Sequence record: ON568341.1
Source of the DNA: Escherichia phage UE-S1
Strand: one strand, 5' to 3'
Length of the DNA stretch: 64,000 nucleotides
Each line of letters starts with the position of its first letter. The first letter of the stretch is position 1. Positions 8,079-18,633 of the stretch are shown piece by piece. The notes beneath the pieces were generated by a model. The model was not told where the DNA came from and did no database searches. It worked only from the letters and a program-made list of their open reading frames with translations. Made by a program: the position numbers and the translations under genes.

Positions 8079-11000
8079 TTAAGAACCAATATTTATATTG
8101 CTTTTAGCTAATGAGTTAACTATTTGAACATTTTCTACTGATGCCGTACTCAAAAATATTTGGTCCGAACGTGATGGAATTTCAAATAGTGACCCAAATT
8201 TTGAATTTGGATTTTGTGCAACAATAACAATTGTACTAATATGTCTCCCCAATTGGGAATGTATATAAGTACACAAATCAGTGTAATAGAAACTTTCACC
8301 AAAATCCCAATTATCAACATTAAAATATTCATTTGTTAATGCAATAACATTTTGACGAATTTCATCGTCACTCATAGTACTATTTGGTAATTTAACAACT
8401 TTAAAATCAGCTTTATAGTCTTCAGCAGCACTATTGCCAAACAATGGTAGGTACTCTGCACTATGCCAAATAATACTGTCACTGATGACAATTTTTTGCT
8501 CAACATCTTTGAACATATTTTTCAATTCAACTGATGTAGGTGGTTTTGGGATACTTCCAACTGCATTATTTTTCAACCACACATCAACTTCGGTTTTATA
8601 CGAGTTAGTTAGAACATACATATCAATTAAGTTTGTTCTACTTGGATCAATGCGATTATCGTCAGGTGCATAATGTTTCCAATGGAAGTCAATACTTGTA
8701 CGAGCATTTGTTTTGACTGTGTATTGTGCAGTAACATCTTTATAACCATAGTAATCCAACTTCTGATTCTCATCAGAATTAGTACCCATGTTGTTAATTG
8801 TACGATAAAATGCGAGTTCTGGTGTAACAGTTATGGTGTCATCTGAATATGTCAAATTACTAATTAATTGACCCAAACGATCATTGTTGTTACCAACGGT
8901 TTGTTCGATGAAATAATATTTACCATCATATTTAAAACACACTAAGAATCCAGAACCTTTACTGTACAATCCACTCAATGAGTTAGAACGAATTGCATTA
9001 TTTCGTACAAATTCAGTTCTTTTATATGTATTAGGTTCAGCTAATGCTTGTTCCATCGTATAAGACCAAGATGAATCTAGAAACGTGAATGTATCATTTG
9101 GTAAAGATAGAACTGAAATAGTAAAATCATTATTTTCTTTGAATATCAAAATACCACCATATTTCAATGCATCAGTACCTGACCATTCTGGAACAATTTC
9201 TTTAAATTGGTTTGGTTCCAATGGTATACCATTACTATCTACTTTTCTAGATGTGACAATAATACGAGAGCCATCAAGATATCCATTTTCTTGCTGTATT
9301 GTATCATAAATTTGAAAATCAATATTACTCGTCAGTCCAGAATTGTTAGTACTGGTGGTGTTCGAAGATAAAATTTCAATCTTATCGCTTTGAACAGTGC
9401 CAGTACTAATATCAGTTATTTTTTTGGATGAAACAAAGTAAAATTTCACTTTATCCCCACCAACGAATATATATTCAATACCATTAGCGTCAAATTCCCA
9501 AGTTTCTGCTGTATATTTTACATTTATAACAACCAAAACTTCATGACCATTATACATAATAGTATCATCATTCGTACTTACTTCTACCGGAACCCATGCA
9601 GTTGTTTCTTTGTCATGCACAATGACAAAATCAGTTTTCTTATCCAACATTGCAGAAATAGATTGAACTTCAACGGAATCAAACCTAGTTCTATATGGTA
9701 ATATATAATCAATTGCTTGCATTCTACTTGGTACGGATGTACTTAATACATAAAACCCATTATCTAATACACTAACAATACTTGCCCATACTGTAGTGGT
9801 AGAGTTAGAAAATTTAATCAAAGTACCCACCTGATACGAGCCATATACAGTCCCAGATGAACCCAAAATTCTACCATATGTATTTGTAGTATAATTTGAA
9901 TTATATACAGGCGTCCATGATTGTTGGATTTCAATGCCAATCGTATTGGAAGGGTAAGCTTGATAGCGTTGTATTACCGCATTTTCACCAATCAATGGTT
10001 GAATATTATCAATAACAATGCTGGCATTAGTTTTTGTTGTTGGTAGTAATAGTGACCTATTAAATTTAGTATTTTCTTGATATAATGCCCCGTCATCACT
10101 AAACACATCAGTGTTTTGGTATTTTCCAGTAGGATCATTGATGTCAATAAATCTAGACTGACCACTATAAATTCTATTAATAGCTTTCGACTTAAGCACT
10201 GTATTCCCTAAACTAAGGGGTGCTATATTATAATCTTCACCATTAACAAAGCGGTTTTGTGTATAGTACATTTGTGGTGCACGTGCTTTAATCTGCTCAA
10301 TTGTCTCAGCACTTTGTGCACGATCTGATTCATATTGTAATGAAAAACGTACATCCAACGTACTAGATTCATAACTTGATTGTGTTTTAGTTCGATATGT
10401 ATACTTTACACTTTTATTTTGAATTTCTGATGTTTTAATGTTATACGTTTTACCATTACTGACGCGATACCACACGCGAAAAGTTCCACGCGGCACAACA
10501 CCACTTCTAGAATCTGGATATTTAATTGTTATTTGGTCTTTGTCACGTGTTGAAACAGCAAAAATTGTTTTTAATTGACGGTTAACCGTATTATATGCAA
10601 TACTTTCCATAGATGGTACTTTTGTCCATTTCGCACGCACAATACCATCTTCATTAATTTCTTGAACCCAAACATCAGTTTCGTTTATATTATCAACGTT
10701 TACATCTTGTATTCTATTTTCTTCACGAATATTATATTGATAATCTTGATATGTCAACGTCCCTTGTATAAAATATACAAAAAAACCAGTATTTGGTGAA
10801 CTGAATCCATTACCATCATTTTGATAGACAATATATTTTTGTTCTTGCGGTTCTGGGTGACGTTCCTCAACACCAACGGATGTAATGTCAGGGTTTACCA
10901 CTTCAAATGTCATAGATTCACCATTTACTGTTGCAACAAATGGTATACTTGGTGCAGTCATTGGAATTGTATTCATCCTATACAATTGTCGAGATACACC

Positions 11001-11540
11001 ATTAACATCAATACGTTTAACTGGGTTACCAAATTGATTAGTACTAACAAATGAGCTATTCATAACAAGAATGAAGTTTTCATACCAATTTGCATCCATC
11101 GGGTCATTCCAACGAATAATTTTATCTTTTAGCGATTCATTGAAACTATTACGAACATCTTGGTTAGTTTTAATTTCAGTTAATTTAGCAACTGCACGAC
11201 CAGGATAAGAACGGCGTGGTGCATAAGAAATCATTTTAGCTAGTTTTAGAACTGATGCACGACGTGTTGCAGTATCTAAAAAGTTTTCACGTGTGTTTAA
11301 ATCCATACGAAATGCCAAGTTCTGTCCTAGCATAGAAATTGTATCCAGAATAAAAATGAATTGGTCATTTTCAATCCAGTCATTGAATGAATCAGGATAC
11401 GTTTGACGCAAATAATCAATCATACTCTGGCGAATAGTATCAAAATCATATGCAGTAAGATTGATTTTATAAAAACTTTCATAAACTTGAGTCCAATCTT
11501 CACCACTATATAAATTTGATTGCCTTTTTTGTTGTGACAT
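8079..11540 (-). CDS. Baseplate wedge protein, gp6/gpJ-like (1153 aa)
   Basis: Long ORF directly downstream of the gp25/gpW-like gene, matching the conserved V-W-J order of contractile-tail baseplates. Function inferred from position and size only. Confidence 0.45.
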   Translation of the reverse strand: MSQQKRQSNLYSGEDWTQVYESFYKINLTAYDFDTIRQSMIDYLRQTYPDSFNDWIENDQFIFILDTISMLGQNLAFRMDLNTRENFLDTATRRASVLKLAKMISYAPRRSYPGRAVAKLTEIKTNQDVRNSFNESLKDKIIRWNDPMDANWYENFILVMNSSFVSTNQFGNPVKRIDVNGVSRQLYRMNTIPMTAPSIPFVATVNGESMTFEVVNPDITSVGVEERHPEPQEQKYIVYQNDGNGFSSPNTGFFVYFIQGTLTYQDYQYNIREENRIQDVNVDNINETDVWVQEINEDGIVRAKWTKVPSMESIAYNTVNRQLKTIFAVSTRDKDQITIKYPDSRSGVVPRGTFRVWYRVSNGKTYNIKTSEIQNKSVKYTYRTKTQSSYESSTLDVRFSLQYESDRAQSAETIEQIKARAPQMYYTQNRFVNGEDYNIAPLSLGNTVLKSKAINRIYSGQSRFIDINDPTGKYQNTDVFSDDGALYQENTKFNRSLLLPTTKTNASIVIDNIQPLIGENAVIQRYQAYPSNTIGIEIQQSWTPVYNSNYTTNTYGRILGSSGTVYGSYQVGTLIKFSNSTTTVWASIVSVLDNGFYVLSTSVPSRMQAIDYILPYRTRFDSVEVQSISAMLDKKTDFVIVHDKETTAWVPVEVSTNDDTIMYNGHEVLVVINVKYTAETWEFDANGIEYIFVGGDKVKFYFVSSKKITDISTGTVQSDKIEILSSNTTSTNNSGLTSNIDFQIYDTIQQENGYLDGSRIIVTSRKVDSNGIPLEPNQFKEIVPEWSGTDALKYGGILIFKENNDFTISVLSLPNDTFTFLDSSWSYTMEQALAEPNTYKRTEFVRNNAIRSNSLSGLYSKGSGFLVCFKYDGKYYFIEQTVGNNNDRLGQLISNLTYSDDTITVTPELAFYRTINNMGTNSDENQKLDYYGYKDVTAQYTVKTNARTSIDFHWKHYAPDDNRIDPSRTNLIDMYVLTNSYKTEVDVWLKNNAVGSIPKPPTSVELKNMFKDVEQKIVISDSIIWHSAEYLPLFGNSAAEDYKADFKVVKLPNSTMSDDEIRQNVIALTNEYFNVDNWDFGESFYYTDLCTYIHSQLGRHISTIVIVAQNPNSKFGSLFEIPSRSDQIFLSTASVENVQIVNSLAKSNINIGS

Positions 11541-11605
11541 AATTTATTCCTTTAAATCAGTAAAGTACTAGTTCAGTACTGGGAATTATATAGAAATATT
11601 TATTC

Positions 11606-11637
11606 AAAAAGAAAAGCACTCAGAAGAGTGCTTTTTC
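11606..11637 (-). terminator. Bidirectional hairpin terminator
   Basis: GCACTC-agaa-GAGTGC stem flanked by an A-run and a T-run. Confidence 0.45.
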
Positions 11638-11641
11638 TTAG

Positions 11642-12037
11642 TTATAAAGACGATACAGAATATGTTGCCATTCTATTATTACTTCTTGCATCAAAGACTA
11701 TAGAAAGTTCTTCTACCGTATTCAATACAACGTATTGTAATACGATATTCATTTGGTATCCATATTCAATTCTTGAAATTTGTATGTTTTTAAGATTTAA
11801 GCGTGGATCTAAGCTAATAATCCTACGTGCATCTGCTTCTAAAAGGTTAATAGTATTATATCCTTCCAATTCAAACAACAAATCCCATGCAATAAACCCA
11901 TAGTCTGCATCGAATGCTCTTTCGCCTTTTTTTGTATTAAAATGATTCATCAAATCCTGACGAACCAATTCATTATCATACAACGTTTCAGTTCTACCCA
12001 CAACTGGTGTAGAGAAACCTTTGAAAACAACTGCCAT
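11642..12037 (-). CDS. gp25: Baseplate wedge protein gp25/gpW family
   Basis: 131 aa. Motif KGERAFDADYGFIAWDLLFE parallels T4 gp25 KGSRPFDPEFGCDLSDQLFE. Confidence 0.7.
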   Translation of the reverse strand: MAVVFKGFSTPVVGRTETLYDNELVRQDLMNHFNTKKGERAFDADYGFIAWDLLFELEGYNTINLLEADARRIISLDPRLNLKNIQISRIEYGYQMNIVLQYVVLNTVEELSIVFDARSNNRMATYSVSSL

Positions 12038-12050
12038 TGTCTATTTCCTT

Positions 12051-12539
12051 TTATACGGATTCGACGATACGTGCCATCTTTTCCGCTCTAGAAGTGGTTT
12101 GTTTATACCATGTACTATCACGCAATTCTTTACCAGCAGTTTTATAATCAGCTTTACCTAATGCGGACATTGCTTTTTTGAATTTCAAAACTTTGGTTTT
12201 ACCCATTTGGAATACCATCATCCACAATACACGTTGTACCTGTACTGGTGCTGTCATACCAAACTGTTCATAAATGGATTTTGCGTCATTGTACGCAGTT
12301 TGAGCATCTTTAATAAGAAGTTGGTCTGCTTGTTCTTCAGTTAAACCATTTTTGAAGTTCTCGTTGGGAAGAACTAAATGACCATAACCAATAGTATCAA
12401 GTCCGAGGCTATCTTTATATACCCAAAACTTATCATTTTTAAAATATCCAAGTTTTTTTTGATAAGAAATTGTACCTTCAAACTCTTTAATTTCTTTAAA
12501 AAACTGCTCATCTGTATTTTTAATTTCCCATTTACTCAT
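12051..12539 (-). CDS. Lysozyme (T4-lysozyme-like), free-standing
   Basis: 162 aa. Catalytic-triad context EFEG ... DSLG ... DTIGYGH matches T4 lysozyme E11/D20/T26. Paralogous to the C-terminal domain of the upstream spike protein. A TATAAATA late box lies 17 nt upstream. Confidence 0.8.
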   Translation of the reverse strand: MSKWEIKNTDEQFFKEIKEFEGTISYQKKLGYFKNDKFWVYKDSLGLDTIGYGHLVLPNENFKNGLTEEQADQLLIKDAQTAYNDAKSIYEQFGMTAPVQVQRVLWMMVFQMGKTKVLKFKKAMSALGKADYKTAGKELRDSTWYKQTTSRAEKMARIVESV

Positions 12540-12555
12540 AAAGACATCCTCATTT

Positions 12556-12563
12556 TATTTATA
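12556..12563 (-). promoter_or_regulatory. T4-type late promoter box TATAAATA
   Basis: Plus strand reads tatttata, that is TATAAATA on the minus strand, 17 nt upstream of the lysozyme start. Confidence 0.5.
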
Positions 12564-12575
12564 GTACTGAAATAT

Positions 12576-15239
12576 TTATTGACATGCCTCCAAACGTCGA
12601 GCCATTAACTCAGCACGGCGTGTCGTTTGGCGATACCAAGCCGAATTACGGATTTGTGCTGCTGCTTGTTTATAATTTCCTTTCGCTAATTCAGATAACA
12701 TTGTTTTAAATTTAAGAACTCCACCTTTGCCCATTTGAAATACCATTTGACATAGAACTTGCTGTGCCATATAAGGAGTTTTCATGTTATATGATGCATA
12801 AATTGATTTAGCATCATAAATTGCTTTACTACTATCACGAACAAGCATATCATTTGCTTGTTGTTCAGTTATACCAGAAGAAAAGTTTTCGCCATTCACG
12901 ATTAAATGACCGTAACCAATAGTTGGGTAGCCACGACTATCCAAATAACGCCAGAATTTACCATTTCGATAATACCCTTTTGCTTGTTGATATTGCATAG
13001 TACCCTCATATTCCTTTAATTCGGAAATAAATTGAGAATCACCTGGGACAATTTTCCAATCTATTGCAGTTTTATCTACATTACCGACATTATATGTTGG
13101 TTGTACAACTGGTGTAGATGATACACCACTTCTCTGTGTTCTTCTTTTACGAGGTACATGTCGTGAGCCACGCTGTGAATAACCAGTACCAATTGTTTTA
13201 ATTTTGGTAGTAACGACCAATTCATCACTATCAACGGATGGTTGTACTACTGCTTGCGGTGAAGATTGATTTGTTGCTTGACCTGCAATCAATGTTTTAT
13301 TAGCTGCATCTGCACCAATACCAGTTTGTGATGCATAAAATAATCCTGGGTCAACTGAACCACTAAAGCCGAGGACGTTAGCTGACGTTACACGTATTTC
13401 AAATTGCATAACACCATTTGCTTTACCAATGACCTGTCCCTTTTGAACTACATCCTTGTTTAGTAAATTCGTTTGAATATTATAAAATATAGATTTATAA
13501 CCAGATTTATGTTGAATCAAAATCCCACCATTAGTAATTACAACAACACCACCATCTGGTGCAACAACATCTCCTTTACATTGTATTTCCCATCCAGAAC
13601 GGTCAGTCTTTCCTCCATTTTGTGTTGGAATGCCTTTTCCCCAATAGCCGTATTGACGAATGGTCCCACTACACGGCATATACATATGCAAACCTTCATA
13701 TGTAATGCTATACCCAGTCATTCCAGTATCAGATACCATTAAATCTTGTGTTTGAACTTGTTCGGTTTCGGGTGTATAGTTCACAAACTGAATAGCTTCA
13801 GTTTCTTGAGCTTCAGGAATTTCTGGTGTAACATCATTTGCAGGCTGTGGCTGAACAGGGGATTCACTTGAAATCTTCCCCCCACCTTGTCTTGGTGGTT
13901 CAACATAACTACCATGGTTTTTCGCATCAACCCATGAAACAATGTCATGAATGTGTTCATTAAGACCAGCAGATGGTGTTCTGAAATTTGGTGCAGTAAA
14001 TTCAGCAGTACCGCTATTACCACCACTATTAACTGTTAATGTTTGACCTCCACCACTAACAATTGCTGAAGATGAACCAATTAAGTTTGCAGATGTAGAA
14101 GCAGAAATAGACGCATTTGAACCAGCAGTAATATCAGTACTGCTACCACTTTGCATACGTAAGGACGCAGCAGTGACCAGTCGAAGATCAGCACCGGAAT
14201 TAACCACAACTTGTCCACCAACTTTTGCATCAAGAGTTCCAATTAGATCTAATTTAGTATTGGCTCCTACGCGTGCATTAAAATCTTGACCCGTTTCAAT
14301 ATTATATGAACGACCAGCAGTGATGTTAATATCTTGCCCTGCACGAATATTGATATTCTTATCACAGTGCATGTCAATATCCCCTTCACCAGTAAATTTT
14401 ATACGGGCGGTCCCATCACGATTAATTAAAAGTACATCCCCCGTTGCTTCTGATAATAAAAGTTGTGCACCACTACGGGTTTTTATTACAACTCCTTCAT
14501 TTTTACGAGAACCAACACGGGTGTCGTTTACTGGGTTATTGAATTGTGTATCTTGATATCCATCTGGGTCTTGATCCCATGTGGGTGCAGTTAATTCCTC
14601 TTCGGTATAGCCATCATCAATGATGAAACTATTTCCACGTGGGGATGACATCCCATATACAGTACTCGTTGTTTGGCGAGTACTACTTCGGTTAGCAAGG
14701 CCAGCTTCTTCATCATACAAAAGGTTTTGCTTTTTAAGACCAGCAATAATTGGAACATTTGCATATTTGTCTTGCATATCAGTAGTGAGTGTGTTACGAT
14801 CATAGTCAGTAACAGGAAGAGGCATATCTGTTCCGCTATAATTACTAACATCTGTTGCCATACCAGGGACCATAGTATTCATGCGATGGTCATATACACA
14901 ACCAATCCAATACGCTTGAAATGTACGAGCCTGTGCGAAAATCACAACAACAGTGCACCCAACATCAGGCGGCACAGCCCAGAATCCATAACCTTTAGGA
15001 TACTGTCCATAAGCATCTGCACTTGGAATACCTGGTGTTTTACCAGCAAAAGGAGACATATAAGATGCCTCAATCCATGATTCTTTTGAATTTTTATCGC
15101 TTTGTGAACCTTGTATCCAAACTTTTAACTTTCCAGATTTAGTTGGATCTCTATTATCCATAACTGTTGCTAATTGTGGATAAGCTGGGTCAAAACGACC
15201 CAACTGTTGTTGTGCATACTTTTTACTTGTATCTGCCAT
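12576..15239 (-). CDS. gp5: Baseplate central spike / hub protein (gp5/gpV-like) with beta-helix, M23-like barrel and C-terminal lysozyme domain
   Basis: 887 aa. N-terminal OB-fold pattern resembles T4 gp5. Central Gly/Ser/Thr-rich repeats suggest a beta-helix needle. An M23/LytM-like segment follows. The C-terminal ~160 aa is a lysozyme domain with EYEG ... DSRG ... PTIGYGH. Confidence 0.7.
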   Translation of the reverse strand: MADTSKKYAQQQLGRFDPAYPQLATVMDNRDPTKSGKLKVWIQGSQSDKNSKESWIEASYMSPFAGKTPGIPSADAYGQYPKGYGFWAVPPDVGCTVVVIFAQARTFQAYWIGCVYDHRMNTMVPGMATDVSNYSGTDMPLPVTDYDRNTLTTDMQDKYANVPIIAGLKKQNLLYDEEAGLANRSSTRQTTSTVYGMSSPRGNSFIIDDGYTEEELTAPTWDQDPDGYQDTQFNNPVNDTRVGSRKNEGVVIKTRSGAQLLLSEATGDVLLINRDGTARIKFTGEGDIDMHCDKNINIRAGQDINITAGRSYNIETGQDFNARVGANTKLDLIGTLDAKVGGQVVVNSGADLRLVTAASLRMQSGSSTDITAGSNASISASTSANLIGSSSAIVSGGGQTLTVNSGGNSGTAEFTAPNFRTPSAGLNEHIHDIVSWVDAKNHGSYVEPPRQGGGKISSESPVQPQPANDVTPEIPEAQETEAIQFVNYTPETEQVQTQDLMVSDTGMTGYSITYEGLHMYMPCSGTIRQYGYWGKGIPTQNGGKTDRSGWEIQCKGDVVAPDGGVVVITNGGILIQHKSGYKSIFYNIQTNLLNKDVVQKGQVIGKANGVMQFEIRVTSANVLGFSGSVDPGLFYASQTGIGADAANKTLIAGQATNQSSPQAVVQPSVDSDELVVTTKIKTIGTGYSQRGSRHVPRKRRTQRSGVSSTPVVQPTYNVGNVDKTAIDWKIVPGDSQFISELKEYEGTMQYQQAKGYYRNGKFWRYLDSRGYPTIGYGHLIVNGENFSSGITEQQANDMLVRDSSKAIYDAKSIYASYNMKTPYMAQQVLCQMVFQMGKGGVLKFKTMLSELAKGNYKQAAAQIRNSAWYRQTTRRAELMARRLEACQ

Positions 15240-15252
15240 ATTTTTTTATTCC

Positions 15253-17502
15253 TTAGTCAACTATACTATCGTGACGTTTAAGTGCACGGATTACAATTGC
15301 AGCTTGAATTTGTTGTGTAAAAGAACCACCTGCACCAAAATCATGAACGATTTTATTAACACGATAAATTGTTTGATTAAACGTAGTTGGTGTATTAATA
15401 TCCAATACACCAGTGTTATCATTAATTGACACTACTGGTTGTAATTTTAATAATAGATATGCTTCAGATGTTATGTAGTTTGCTACGTGATAATCATCTG
15501 GATTAATTTCCATATCCTCACCATTAATTACTTGCTCTAGATATTGTAAGTACGAGTAATCACTCCATCCTAACCAATATGGATCACCAACTACACGCAT
15601 ATCAAGCTTGCACAAAAAAGGTCTATTGTAATAGTTGTCACGTATTTTACGTCTATCCATTTCATATGTACTACTGTTATCGTTTAGAGAAGCCGATAAC
15701 GTCGTTTCATTATTGGTTGCTTCAGTAGGCATTGTGAATACTTCACCATAACGATGTCCAATCCCATCAGTTCCTTCATCGTTTTCTTCATATGTAGTGA
15801 CATAATCTTCAATATATTGTGGTAACACATTTACTTGATAATTATTATAACGGTCTTGTTCTTCAGCGTTCCCGACCTGCATTTGGTTTTTAGCCAACGT
15901 ATCAATTTCTGACAATAAATCTTGTTGGTCTTTTGTTAACATTCCACCCATATCACGTGTTACACGCAAATCACTTGTTTTTGCCCATGCATCTGGTATA
16001 CTATTATATTGCACACCTTGTATATTCAATTCTTGTGAGTTATGTGTACCAGAATGGTTTGCCACGTCTTGAATTGGCCCTGGGTTACGGGTAGTGGCTA
16101 CGAAAAATTGTTGGTCAAATTTTAAATCCAAATCAATTATCTCACTATTAAGACCACTAAACTGATAATTATAAGTTTTTATATTCAATTTTGGTTTTTG
16201 ATCGATAGGATCTACATATTTTTCCGCATTCTCAAAGAAATATTCAAATGTGAAATTTTCTGGTTGTAAATCAGATTCATGTACAATATCACCTATCTTA
16301 AATTTAACTATATAAAAAATAACTTTATAAACTGAAGTGTTACGATAATTATCAAAACCAATATATTGTTTTATTGGTATAATATTAACAAATTGTCGTA
16401 CACTGGTGCTCTCATCTGCTTGTACTGTACAAGTATCAATAACATCATCAATAATTCTGGATATAGGAGTACTTGGGTTCCATGAAAAGTTTTTAGAACC
16501 TTGGGTTCCACTTTTAGTTGTTCCAGCTTCTGCCATTTGTTTAGAATCATAATTTATAAACAAATCTTGTAAATCAGGAGCAACTTTAAATTCAAAAAAT
16601 TTGCCATCAGATAATTCACCAAATTTATATCTAAGATACCCATATTGTTGGTCAGCCATCTGATTTAATTTATCTTCCAAATCAAAACAGAAATCACCAA
16701 AGTTTTCAGCCGTACAATTAAATGGTTCTTTAAGTGTCCATTCAATATTATCAACCAATGCTGCTCTATTATGAACTAAACTCATAGAATACATCATAGT
16801 ACTTCCACTTTGTGATGCACTAGCCGTTATACTATTAATTTTAACTGACCATCTTCGTGTTGTTTCAGGAATAATTTCAGGGATTCCATTCTTATTAAAA
16901 CCTATGAACTTTAATTCCAATATCAAAGGTAAGTCCATGAATTTATGAAATCTAAGTTTATTACTTAACGATATTAGTTCATCATATAGACTCATACTAT
17001 TATTTTCAGACATATTAAGAACAGCCGTATTGAAACAATAGTTAGTTGTCATTCCAGGTGTGGATGGTCCAGCTTGCGTCATTTGTACACTTGTGATATT
17101 ATATTTTCCACTAACACCACTTTCAGATATAACATGACGCTGCACGTCGGCATCTGGATAAAGCCAAAAATTTTTAAAATCATCCTTATCCAACGCAAAC
17201 AGACAAAAATGCCAAGTTGGATTATCATATTTTAATAGTTTGTTGTTGTATGGTATCACAAATTGACTTAAATCTAAATCTTCATAAACTTGTCCCATAC
17301 CAGCACTCTGTGATGGCAATGACTCAACATTACTAACATTTGCTTTATAGTTATTTTTTGTAATAGCTTTCACGTCATTTTGTAATGTATTAGCGGTAGC
17401 TTTCAAACTATCCAATGAATTAGATGCAGTTGTTTTTGTCTTCTTATTAATACTTGAAATATCATTTTGAAAATTATCAACTGTACTTCGTAAATCTGCC
17501 AT
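15253..17502 (-). CDS. Putative baseplate hub protein (gp27/gpD-like position)
   Basis: 749-aa ORF immediately upstream of the spike gene. Assigned by synteny only. Confidence 0.3.
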   Translation of the reverse strand: MADLRSTVDNFQNDISSINKKTKTTASNSLDSLKATANTLQNDVKAITKNNYKANVSNVESLPSQSAGMGQVYEDLDLSQFVIPYNNKLLKYDNPTWHFCLFALDKDDFKNFWLYPDADVQRHVISESGVSGKYNITSVQMTQAGPSTPGMTTNYCFNTAVLNMSENNSMSLYDELISLSNKLRFHKFMDLPLILELKFIGFNKNGIPEIIPETTRRWSVKINSITASASQSGSTMMYSMSLVHNRAALVDNIEWTLKEPFNCTAENFGDFCFDLEDKLNQMADQQYGYLRYKFGELSDGKFFEFKVAPDLQDLFINYDSKQMAEAGTTKSGTQGSKNFSWNPSTPISRIIDDVIDTCTVQADESTSVRQFVNIIPIKQYIGFDNYRNTSVYKVIFYIVKFKIGDIVHESDLQPENFTFEYFFENAEKYVDPIDQKPKLNIKTYNYQFSGLNSEIIDLDLKFDQQFFVATTRNPGPIQDVANHSGTHNSQELNIQGVQYNSIPDAWAKTSDLRVTRDMGGMLTKDQQDLLSEIDTLAKNQMQVGNAEEQDRYNNYQVNVLPQYIEDYVTTYEENDEGTDGIGHRYGEVFTMPTEATNNETTLSASLNDNSSTYEMDRRKIRDNYYNRPFLCKLDMRVVGDPYWLGWSDYSYLQYLEQVINGEDMEINPDDYHVANYITSEAYLLLKLQPVVSINDNTGVLDINTPTTFNQTIYRVNKIVHDFGAGGSFTQQIQAAIVIRALKRHDSIVD

Positions 17503-17513
17503 GTGTTACTCCA

Positions 17514-17828
17514 TTAGCCTATGTTTCGAGTACCATTAAGATAGTTTTGTACTCTTTGATTTGCTGGTATTCTAATTGTTACTCCACTTTTAAAATTATA
17601 TATAGGATCTTCTCCTAATATATCTGGATTTAACAATGCAAAAATATAATATAGACGTTCATTGCCATACATCTCGTAGGCTAAACGCCAGGGTTGATAT
17701 TCATACTTCAATGGGATCTCATAAAAATCATCAGTATCAGCAGGAACTATATCTCGTGGTAAATTATAACCAAGATACCAAGATTGTTTCACCTTAGCAT
17801 AAGGTGAGTATTGACTATAGTTGGACAT
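17514..17828 (-). CDS. Small baseplate protein with LysM-like segment (gpX/gp53-like position)
   Basis: 104 aa. A LysM-like pattern ending GVTIRIP. Position upstream of hub and spike. Confidence 0.3.
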   Translation of the reverse strand: MSNYSQYSPYAKVKQSWYLGYNLPRDIVPADTDDFYEIPLKYEYQPWRLAYEMYGNERLYYIFALLNPDILGEDPIYNFKSGVTIRIPANQRVQNYLNGTRNIG

Positions 17829-18559
17829 TAAATAAATCCTCCTTTGCGTAATAGTTCACCTCGTTTAAATGCATTGAGGTTAAACGTTTTAGTCATATAA
17901 TCAGATGTCGGTTGTTCTTCAAGTTGTAACATAACTGATATTTTTTGTGGAACCCAAACTTCATCTTGTGGATTCATATATCCAGTACTTCTAAGTTGTT
18001 CGAAGAATTTTCTACTATCCATATCGGATAAATTAAAAGTACTGTCACTACTATTCAAAGGAACTTGAATATAAGAAACATCATTAGGATATGTAAAATT
18101 ATAAGATTTTAAAATTACCGGAATATCATTATATGTGTAACGACCATATCCACTTAAAAGTAAAATTGGTGGTGGTGCACCAGCAATTGCCAATTCGGGG
18201 TTATTAGCAGATGCTGCTTGTCTACCAAAATCCATCAATGAAACCGAACGTATAAAATGAACACATGCCAATGCATACATGGCTTCTGCTGCCGTATTAG
18301 CATAAAATTCACCCTGAATAGTGAAAACCGTATTGGTGGTGTTTTTGTAATTATTATAGTTACTATTGGTATGTATAGGTGACTGTGTTTCATACTGAAT
18401 TGACCTTTGTTCAGTAATTATTGGTGTTACAGTCCAAACCAACCCATTAGTTGGACGCAGAAACGAAAGTAGTGTTGGTTCGGAGCTATCCCCGAAATCA
18501 CCATATACATAGTTAGCACCTGCGGCTTTAGGTCGTAATCGAATTCTACGATCAATCAT
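17828..18559 (-). CDS. Late structural protein (tail/baseplate), unknown function
   Basis: ORF-track frame. Start refined to ATG at 18559 (MIDRRIRL...) with GGAG 9 nt upstream. The track start at 18616 is a GTG inside the promoter region. A TATAAATA box lies upstream. Confidence 0.6.
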   Translation of the reverse strand: MIDRRIRLRPKAAGANYVYGDFGDSSEPTLLSFLRPTNGLVWTVTPIITEQRSIQYETQSPIHTNSNYNNYKNTTNTVFTIQGEFYANTAAEAMYALACVHFIRSVSLMDFGRQAASANNPELAIAGAPPPILLLSGYGRYTYNDIPVILKSYNFTYPNDVSYIQVPLNSSDSTFNLSDMDSRKFFEQLRSTGYMNPQDEVWVPQKISVMLQLEEQPTSDYMTKTFNLNAFKRGELLRKGGFI

Positions 18560-18593
18560 CTTTTGATTCTCCATCATAAGGGAACATTTGATG

Positions 18594-18601
18594 TATTTAT
18601 A
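18594..18601 (-). promoter_or_regulatory. T4-type late promoter TATAAATA
   Basis: Plus strand tatttata, about 35 nt upstream of the refined start at 18559. Confidence 0.5.
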
Positions 18602-18604
18602 CGT

Positions 18605-18633
18605 GGGACAAAACACTTTTTGGTGCTATAATA
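18605..18633 (+). promoter_or_regulatory. Early sigma70-like promoter (GGGACA-N17-TGcTATAAT)
   Basis: GGGACA at 18605-18610 and extended -10 TGCTATAAT at 18625-18633, upstream of gp55. Confidence 0.5.

Follow-up and report, generated by a model that had tools for sequence, protein, structure and literature searches.

In a 64,000-nucleotide stretch of DNA from Escherichia phage UE-S1 (sequence record ON568341.1; hereafter the window), a gene for a predicted baseplate spike protein of 887 amino acids (positions 12576-15239) is followed immediately by a gene for a free lysozyme of 162 amino acids (12051-12539). We found that the M23-like segment in the middle of the spike is a genuine LytM-fold domain that has lost its metal-binding and catalytic residues and yet is strongly conserved, and that an HxH motif invariant in the spike family stands in mid-chain, with about 450 residues of cargo beyond it. 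The account that we favor, with a probability of roughly 0.72, is that the spike is a needle carrying a dead LytM domain and a lysozyme as cargo, and that the free lysozyme is a soluble muramidase acting on the lysis side. The domain architecture, the central M23 match, and the paralogy of the lysozymes have already been published for phages RaK2 and CBB. The 2013 RaK2 paper reported three paralogous lysozymes and called the domain composition of its 886-residue protein "very unusual" (PMC3622015), while the 2017 CBB paper gave the central M23 match cautiously and noted the adjacent T4-type lysozyme gene (PMC5259590). The architecture is thus a rediscovery of a feature of Rak2-like jumbo phages and adds little alone. 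The loss of the M23 active site and the internal HxH motif were not found in the published descriptions of Rak2-like spikes that we consulted, and a literature search for degenerate LytM domains in phage tails returned nothing relevant. These two refinements are modest and do not amount to a new kind of system; both concern the means by which large contractile phages bring enzymes past the outer membrane.

The 887-residue protein resembles gp5/VgrG-type spikes

On its sequence, we assign the 887-residue protein to the central baseplate spikes of Rak2/121Q-type jumbo myoviruses, of the gp5/VgrG type. All genes and domains described below lie on the minus strand of the window, and both reading frames, spike and free lysozyme, have exactly the coordinates given in a preliminary description of this DNA. 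Conservation was assessed in a set of 87 full-length spike homologs (36-91% identity), and ratios of nonsynonymous to synonymous substitution rates (dN/dS) were computed against phage 121Q. The protein opens with an OB fold of the gp5/VgrG kind (residues 1-120; 14880-15239; dN/dS 0.009), which matches Pfam Phage_base_V (PF04717) at residues 23-116 with 29.8 bits against a cutoff of 23.8. A highly conserved middle region without a family assignment comes next (residues 121-250; 14490-14879; dN/dS 0.018); its majority residues reach frequencies of 0.71-0.84 among the homologs, it has low predicted local distance difference test (pLDDT) scores in a monomer model, and it is probably the part that contacts the hub or tube. 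The needle itself is a triple-stranded beta-helix (residues 251-415; 13995-14489; pLDDT 76-87) that matches the VgrG-type family DUF2345 at residues 278-329 with 34.2 bits against a cutoff of 30.7. An N-terminal OB fold followed by a trimeric beta-helix, both scoring above their Pfam cutoffs, is the arrangement of a gp5/VgrG-type spike. A profile of the N-terminal 455 residues, built from 11 diverse homologs, matched type VI secretion system (T6SS) VgrG structures in the Protein Data Bank (PDB) at 4e-6 to 5e-4, along with the central spikes of phages and contractile injection systems, and the whole protein matched PHROG 13211 end to end (1788 bits). These results bear out the preliminary description in its reading of a gp5-like spike with an OB-fold N terminus, and identify what it had called a Gly/Ser/Thr-rich repeat region as the trimeric beta-helix.

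The role in the particle is taken from orthologs and not from UE-S1 particles: the gene sits in a baseplate cluster with gp53-, gp25-, and gp6-like flanks, and orthologs have been detected in virions by mass spectrometry. These include phAPEC6 gp241 (95.9 kDa), which was represented by 7 peptides (PMC7247149), and CBB_240, represented by 3 (PMC5259590). The same length (886-894 residues), domain order, and synteny are found in RaK2 gp078 (YP_007007233), CBB_240, GAP32 gp234, 121Q gp587, and phAPEC6 gp241. The window protein is 91-96% identical to annotated orthologs in 121Q-like phages and 91% identical to its closest full-length metagenomic homolog.

A full-length model of the protein reached a pLDDT of 69.7. 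It was confident for the OB strands, the helix (about residues 250-410), and residues 520-650 and 725-887, and fell below 50 in the linkers at 418-428, 450-456, 495-511, and 696-719 and in most of 63-89 and 116-246. Such low values are unsurprising because the model is a monomer of an intertwined trimer, and we kept this unreliable model out of the fold search.

A LytM-fold domain has lost its catalytic residues across the spike family

We conclude that residues 515-650 (13290-13697) form a genuine LytM/M23-fold domain, given that three independent lines, namely a family profile, a profile-to-profile alignment, and a structure model, agree. Pfam Peptidase_M23 matched residues 549-608 of the full protein with 20.2 bits (E 6.9e-4), under the gathering threshold of 28.7, and scored the isolated segment at 25.1 bits (E 2.1e-5), still below threshold; some orthologs of the spike do pass the cutoff (P0078 with 30.1 bits, and several others with precomputed hits). 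When a profile of 33 family members was compared with the PDB, the matches were almost only M23/LytM proteins, among them LasA (1.3e-6), SpoIIQ (3.3e-6), and DipM (1e-4), together with zoocin A, TagE, ShyA, and EnvC. Aligned by hhalign to the LytM domain of Escherichia coli EnvC, the family profile gave a probability of 95% and an E value of 2.5e-8. An AlphaFold2 model of residues 497-652 (pLDDT 90.2, pTM 0.82) retrieved LytM domains in Foldseek with probability 1.00, led by DipM (3.6e-6) and EnvC (4.5e-6) and followed by PrgK and lysostaphin. The M23/LytM-like topology first proposed from the letters alone is therefore related to M23 in profile searches as well as in structure, even though the Pfam score of the window protein is subthreshold. 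Nanobody structures that single-sequence phmmer returned for the middle segment were dismissed as spurious, the family profile being required for real matches, and a word-index homolog search with the isolated 163-residue segment gave nothing, which reflects a limit of the tool and not absence, as the full-length query found the family.

In an exhaustive phmmer search of 1.84 billion representative proteins, this diverged version of M23 was confined to the spike family itself. Outside it, P0124 scored best (E 7.8e-4); this EnvC-like protein combines a coiled coil with a degenerate LytM domain. At the same position in the chain, the metagenomic spike P0097 carries a canonical M23 domain (HWGID, YRHI, and HLHLE; 62.8 bits), followed by a trypsin-like domain, and we therefore regard the domain of the window family as a derived, inactivated version.

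All five metal-binding and catalytic positions of M23 are substituted in the window: R547 and E551 stand in place of HxxxD, N587 in place of the His of YxHL, and V610 and Q612 in place of HxH. We located these positions by anchoring the alignment on invariant neighbors and on the spacing to P0124. A MAFFT alignment of canonical M23 sequences (P0097, P0124) with the family had mis-registered the short HxxxD and HxH motifs and was abandoned for the re-anchored one, with which the hhalign result for EnvC agrees over the HxH-FE region. No canonical residue is kept at any of the five positions in 80 of the 87 homologs, a single one is kept in the remaining 7, and more than one is never kept. The substitutes are themselves variable. 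The His of HxxxD has become Arg in 71 homologs and its Asp has become Ile in 50; neither catalytic His, that of YxHL (now D, G, or N) or the first of HxH (now V, I, or T), is a His in any member; and the second position of HxH, a zinc ligand, is E, Q, T, or another residue, never His. The preliminary description had quoted GVMQFEIRV as the replacement of HxH, and this segment does sit where HxH-FE belongs, with the alteration extending to the whole family.

Other residues of the domain are under tight constraint. P522, G525, W550, R616, and D630 are invariant, Y532, W533, H577, and E614 nearly so, and the dN/dS of the domain, 0.059, is similar to the 0.047 of the fused lysozyme domain. Given that the domain appears catalytically dead in all 87 homologs and yet is strongly conserved, it should therefore have a function other than cutting peptides. 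A LytM fold without metal-binding residues is what defines a degenerate LytM domain, and we accordingly predict that this is one, under strong purifying selection, and not a peptidase. The domain shares the absence of metal ligands with EnvC, NlpD/ActS, DipM, and SpoIIQ, and its x-x-x-FEIR in place of HxH-FE is similar to the sequence of EnvC; unlike those proteins it lacks a coiled coil, a lipobox, and LysM and forms part of a phage spike. In known degenerate LytM domains, the groove that once held the active site serves to bind helices of partners (PMC10268282).

Other metagenomic spikes share the OB and beta-helix front and differ in what follows: P0097 (L007 1956-4403) has the canonical M23 domain and trypsin-like protease mentioned above, P0111 has a GH19 domain, and P0090 and P0095 have a lysozyme and no M23. 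This variety suggests that cargo is exchanged in modular fashion on phage spikes.

An invariant HxH motif stands in mid-chain

Directly after the beta-helix, an apex-like segment (residues 416-449; 13893-13994) carries the HxH motif H429-I-H431 (13947-13955) in the context GLNEH429-I-H431DI. This motif, which lies between the needle and the cargo, was not mentioned in the preliminary description. Both His residues are conserved in 87 of 87 family members, and the segment has a pLDDT of 47-61 in the monomer model. HxH is a recognized signature of the Fe histidine cage in spike apex domains, and in P2 gpV-type spikes it forms the apex cage near the C terminus and marks spikes that are tip-less (bioRxiv 10.1101/2023.02.25.529910). 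By analogy, the HxH of the window spike may bind Fe. Its position immediately after the beta-helix is that of an apex-type motif, but in no family member is it near the C terminus; the chain runs on for 443-524 residues beyond it in every member and for 456 in the window spike. As predicted from these sequences, the mid-chain HxH is in conflict with the published rule by which the motif identifies the apex at the C terminus of tip-less spikes. More distant spikes from the same homolog search mostly have no HxH after the helix.

P2 gpV and phi92 gp138 share with the window spike the OB fold, the beta-helix, and a universally conserved HxH right after the helix, but the P2 gpV chain ends about 12 residues past the motif, where the window spike has 456 residues with two enzyme-fold domains. 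"Evolved" VgrG proteins of the T6SS carry C-terminal effectors, an example being V. cholerae VgrG-3 with its peptidoglycan-degrading domain. The window spike resembles them in that its beta-helix matches VgrG profiles and a wall-degrading effector follows the needle via a linker; it differs in being a phage virion protein, in having no gp27-like N-terminal module in the chain, and in a cargo that includes a degenerate LytM domain. The mid-chain HxH may be read in three ways: as an internal clamp, as an apex that the chains leave with their cargo as in evolved VgrGs, or as the end of a needle whose chain is processed at a Gly-rich hinge.

That hinge (G452-G454) lies in the first of two linkers, one before each cargo domain, that are disordered in the full-length model. 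Linker 1 (residues 450-514; 13698-13892) also has a Pro/Gln/Ala-rich stretch and a short conserved strand and helix (478-501); its dN/dS of 0.14 is the highest in the protein, its pLDDT is below 50 at 450-456 and 495-511, and G452 is conserved in 84 of the 87 members. Linker 2 (residues 651-727; 13059-13289) has a conserved strand at 675-682 and a basic stretch (RHVPRKRR), with a pLDDT below 50 at 696-719.

The fused and free lysozymes are old paralogs

The C-terminal domain of the spike (residues 728-887 and the stop codon; 12576-13058) is a GH24, T4-type lysozyme and a putative muramidase. Pfam Phage_lysozyme (PF00959) matches it at residues 765-882 with 46 bits against a gathering threshold of 22.3, and also matches the free protein above threshold (37.9 bits). 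In the PDB, the fused domain finds T4 lysozyme and the lysozyme domain of gp5 at about 1e-9 to 3e-11. Residues 728-886 align with the free protein over 159 residues without a gap, at 53% identity and an E value of 1e-58, and the counterparts of the E11/D20/Thr26 triad of T4 lysozyme are E745/D767/T773 in the fused copy and E21/D43/T49 in the free copy. Both the C-terminal lysozyme-like domain and the similar lysozyme downstream with the same triad, as originally described, are therefore upheld on formal alignment. Of the 87 fused copies, 86 retain the catalytic Glu (E745) and 86 the catalytic Asp (D767), and the domain of the window spike is 96% identical to that of 121Q and 75% identical to that of RaK2. 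Relative to T4 lysozyme, fused and free copies alike have an insertion of 13 residues between these two catalytic positions. The residue at the T4 Thr26 position (T773; nucleotides 12921-12923) is Asp in 19 of the 87 fused domains, including those of 7t3 and Hallingskeid, while the free copies that we examined keep Thr; this variation may mark a lineage difference in mechanism or activity.

A neighbor-joining tree covering seven phages placed fused and free copies in separate clades, with bootstrap support of only 40 and 68, and each clade repeated the phage phylogeny, the group of the window, 121Q, and RaK2 being supported at 99-100%. Within each phage, the two copies are 47-53% identical. 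Given that the separate clades mirror the phages and that the copies are similarly far apart in all of them, we date the duplication to before the enterobacterial genera split. A recent duplication, or gene conversion between the copies, was rejected on the same identities, found in every phage, and the same two clades.

The free lysozyme has a dN/dS of 0.048, and we found in it no signal peptide or transmembrane segment. It corresponds to RaK2 ORF073, CBB_239, 121Q gp586, and UE-S1 LysUE1, each adjacent to the spike ortholog. Muralytic activity in vitro has been published for LysUE1, the ortholog of the free copy (PMC12805682), and the cloning primers for LysUE1 match the ends of the free lysozyme gene in the window exactly. 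The free lysozyme, as the LysUE1 family, has already been explored as an antibacterial enzyme. The CBB paper confirmed only the spike and gp25 homologs as structural and gave the endolysin role to a separate paralog of the signal-arrest-release (SAR) type elsewhere in the genome (PMC5259590). A third lysozyme paralog of this kind, a predicted SAR endolysin, was looked for within the window and is not there.

A T4-type late-promoter consensus, TATAAATA, lies on the minus strand at 12556-12563, in the 36-nucleotide gap between the spike and the free lysozyme and 24 nucleotides upstream of the ATG, and is followed by a GAGGA Shine-Dalgarno sequence. It is conserved in 121Q and RaK2, and a gene for a gp55-like late sigma factor adjoins the cluster in 121Q and other relatives. 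Other copies of TATAAATA, at 18594-18601 and 8090-8097, also lie just upstream of minus-strand gene starts.

Taken together, spike and free lysozyme recall T4, where one spike protein combines an OB fold, a GH24 domain, and a trimeric beta-helix and a separate paralogous lysozyme, the product of gene e, is soluble; the gp53-, gp25-, and gp6-like neighbors are T4-like too. The arrangement nevertheless differs from that of T4, as the preliminary description had pointed out. T4 gp5 runs OB fold, lysozyme, beta-helix, whereas the window spike runs OB fold, beta-helix, degenerate LytM, lysozyme; the latter has the extra LytM domain and has HxH instead of a PAAR-capped blunt helix end; and the free paralog adjoins the spike, whereas gene e is distant.

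Possible roles of the needle, the cargo, and the free lysozyme

We propose that the N-terminal half of the spike, comprising the OB fold, the middle region, the trimeric beta-helix, and the HxH cage, would serve as a mechanical needle, pushed through the outer membrane when the sheath contracts. About 65 residues of flexible linker would tether two globular cargo domains per chain, the dead LytM domain and the GH24 muramidase, in the build of an evolved VgrG. Riding at the spike tip, this cargo would enter the periplasm, and there the muramidase would cut glycan strands locally and so let the tail tube pass. The degenerate LytM domain could be a noncatalytic binding module that holds peptidoglycan to position the lysozyme, or that docks or restrains the cargo in the virion. 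The free 162-residue gene, an ancient duplicate of the lysozyme domain, would encode a soluble active muramidase that is co-transcribed late with gp25, and probably also from a T4-type late promoter of its own. In all likelihood its product is no stoichiometric part of the virion; it would probably act from inside the cell at lysis, accessory to the SAR-type endolysin.

Several observations weigh against this account. HxH normally ends the chain, and for three chains to leave a "sharp" tip is awkward in mechanical terms; the motif may rather act as a clamp that keeps the chains in register, as in fibers, or the cargo may be cleaved off. Mass spectrometry of RaK2 did not detect the spike (PMC3622015), and in other phages the coverage of the spike is low (4-10%) and does not place the C-terminal cargo in mature virions, while failure to detect a small protein of 18 kDa, such as the free lysozyme, is weak evidence of its absence. 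The promoter motif is reduced to CTAAATA in 7t3 and Hallingskeid and is absent in GAP32. It is also not enriched across the window, where 10 copies were found and 11.8 expected, and therefore only its position is suggestive. Neither a structure nor biochemistry for any member of the spike family, nor cryo-electron microscopy of a Rak2-like baseplate, was found in the PDB or the literature.

What the LytM domain does could also be explained in other ways. It could be an active endopeptidase with a noncanonical site, so that the spike would bear two peptidoglycan hydrolases, as phi29 gp13 does. Virion lysins that combine a lysozyme with an active M23 domain include phi29 gp13, lactococcal Tal2009/TP901-1 Tal, and mycobacteriophage tape measures, and the window spike likewise pairs an M23 fold with a glycosidase or lysin in a tail-tip protein. 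The homology to M23, the strong purifying selection, the near invariance of H577, E614, R616, and D630, and the commonness of active M23 domains in phage virion proteins, with one in the related spike P0097, would all suit such an enzyme. However, the M23 domains of those lysins keep HxxxD and HxH and are active endopeptidases, with mostly Gram-positive hosts, whereas the spike family has replaced all three zinc ligands and both catalytic His residues with substitutes that are not conserved. In structure, the domain matches the degenerate LytM domains of DipM and EnvC best, and H577 and the FE-R motif are better taken as structural because they are also conserved in noncatalytic EnvC; we find an active endopeptidase scarcely credible. 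These same matches raise the question of whether the domain might work as EnvC, NlpD, ActS, and DipM do, binding in the periplasm the autoinhibitory or interaction helix of AmiA/B/C. Under that reading, the phage would deliver an EnvC/NlpD mimic beyond an iron-clamped tip and switch on host amidases locally at the entry site, so that host autolysins would help the lysozyme of the spike to open the wall. DipM and EnvC do head the structural matches, hhalign gives EnvC 95%, the nearest nonspike relative among 1.84 billion proteins is the EnvC-like P0124, and helix binding in the former active-site groove is how known degenerate LytM domains work (PMC10268282). Yet the alignment to EnvC spans no more than the C-terminal two-thirds of the domain and leaves out the amidase-contacting loop of EnvC, and the similarity to the active M23 enzymes LasA and lysostaphin is about as strong. 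Furthermore, the spike has a muramidase of its own, and SpoIIQ shows that a degenerate LytM domain can be purely a protein-docking module. Amidase activation is thus an improbable role, although if it were true, Rak2-like spikes would correspond, on the phage side, to evolved VgrG effectors and carry interchangeable cargo (a lysozyme, GH19, or active M23 together with a trypsin-like protease, in metagenomic relatives).

Two further alternatives concern where the cargo and the free lysozyme end up. The chain might be processed in the Gly-rich hinge after HxH, which would yield a spike like that of P2, ending in a true apex, and would turn the LytM-lysozyme part into a fragment of its own, either bound noncovalently or released. 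HxH is normally near the C terminus of tip-less spikes, and the conserved GGG hinge, with G452 in 84 of 87 members, lies 20 residues downstream of it in a disordered segment with the highest dN/dS. T4 gp5 is cleaved at S351 and the lactococcal Tal of Tuc2009 at a Gly-rich site, which provides precedents, while evolved VgrGs carry their C-terminal effectors without cleavage. In the RaK2 study, the detected proteins ran in the gel close to their predicted masses (PMC3622015); the spike was not among them, and this agreement covers other proteins. On balance we are doubtful of processing, while granting it a real chance. We give somewhat lower odds to a structural place for the free lysozyme in the baseplate, where it might for instance attach to the spike or hub instead of serving lysis as a soluble enzyme. 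Its gene keeps its position between spike and gp25 in at least five genera or clades and is transcribed together with gp25, and these phages have another endolysin, of the SAR type. Nonetheless, the protein went undetected in virion proteomes in which its neighbors were detected: it was not confirmed for CBB or the other Rak2-like phages in the cross-phage table of the CBB paper (PMC5259590), and the small lysozyme is not listed for phAPEC6 (PMC7247149). It also appears to have a late promoter of its own, its public annotation is a homology transfer from T4 gp5, and it is absent from a distant relative, Vibrio phage 2.275.O, that has the same fused spike.

The spike gene lies in a T4-like baseplate module

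The genes around the spike form what we predict to be the T4-like baseplate module of an Asteriusvirus-like jumbo phage. Directly upstream of the spike is the gene for a 749-residue virion protein (15253-17502), for which we found no Pfam or NCBIfam match, preceded by a gp53-like gene (17514-17828) and the gene for a virion protein of 243 or 262 residues (17828-18616). Downstream of the free lysozyme come a gp25-like baseplate wedge or inner baseplate protein (11642-12037; Pfam GPW_gp25, 35.5 bits; PHROG 43), which is its conserved neighbor, and a gp6-like wedge protein of 1153 residues (8079-11540). A strong bidirectional stem-loop terminator at 11612-11635, with a 10-11-bp stem and T-runs on both strands, closes the lysozyme-gp25 unit.

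Over a 3.7-kb region, the window is 88-89% identical in nucleotides to Escherichia phages ph0011 and 121Q and 88% identical to G17, PBECO4, and phAPEC6 (genus Asteriusvirus, about 350 kb), and at the protein level it is about 68% identical to RaK2-like phages of Klebsiella. Judged by these sequences, with the nearest record only about 88% identical in nucleotides, the window comes from a distinct, somewhat divergent member of a well-sampled jumbo-phage group. The order gp53-like, 749-residue protein, spike, lysozyme, gp25, gp6 is kept in Asteriusvirus, Alcyoneusvirus, Mimasvirus, 7t3, and Hallingskeid, and the order from spike through lysozyme and gp25 to gp6 in 121Q, GAP32, 7t3, and Hallingskeid. 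In RaK2, four small hypothetical reading frames, two per strand, are inserted between the spike and the free lysozyme (L002 6375-7868); the lysozyme is still directly upstream of the gp25-like gene, with TATAAATA upstream. The relative in Vibrio phage 2.275.O also lacks the 749-residue protein, and there the gp53-like gene abuts the spike.

Smaller differences were seen at the edges of the module. Between the gp25-like and gp6-like genes, 121Q has gene 584 (L001 5207-5971), an HNH endonuclease annotated as "associated with group I intron," where the window has only a 100-nucleotide gap (11541-11641) that holds the terminator. The 262-residue reading frame at 17828-18616 opens at GTG, relatives annotate 243 residues, and the TATAAATA copy at 18594-18601 falls inside the longer version; the true start is probably the ATG at 18559. 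The GC content is 0.37-0.38 across the spike and lysozyme genes (within 12001-16000), compared with 0.31-0.33 in the flanking baseplate genes.

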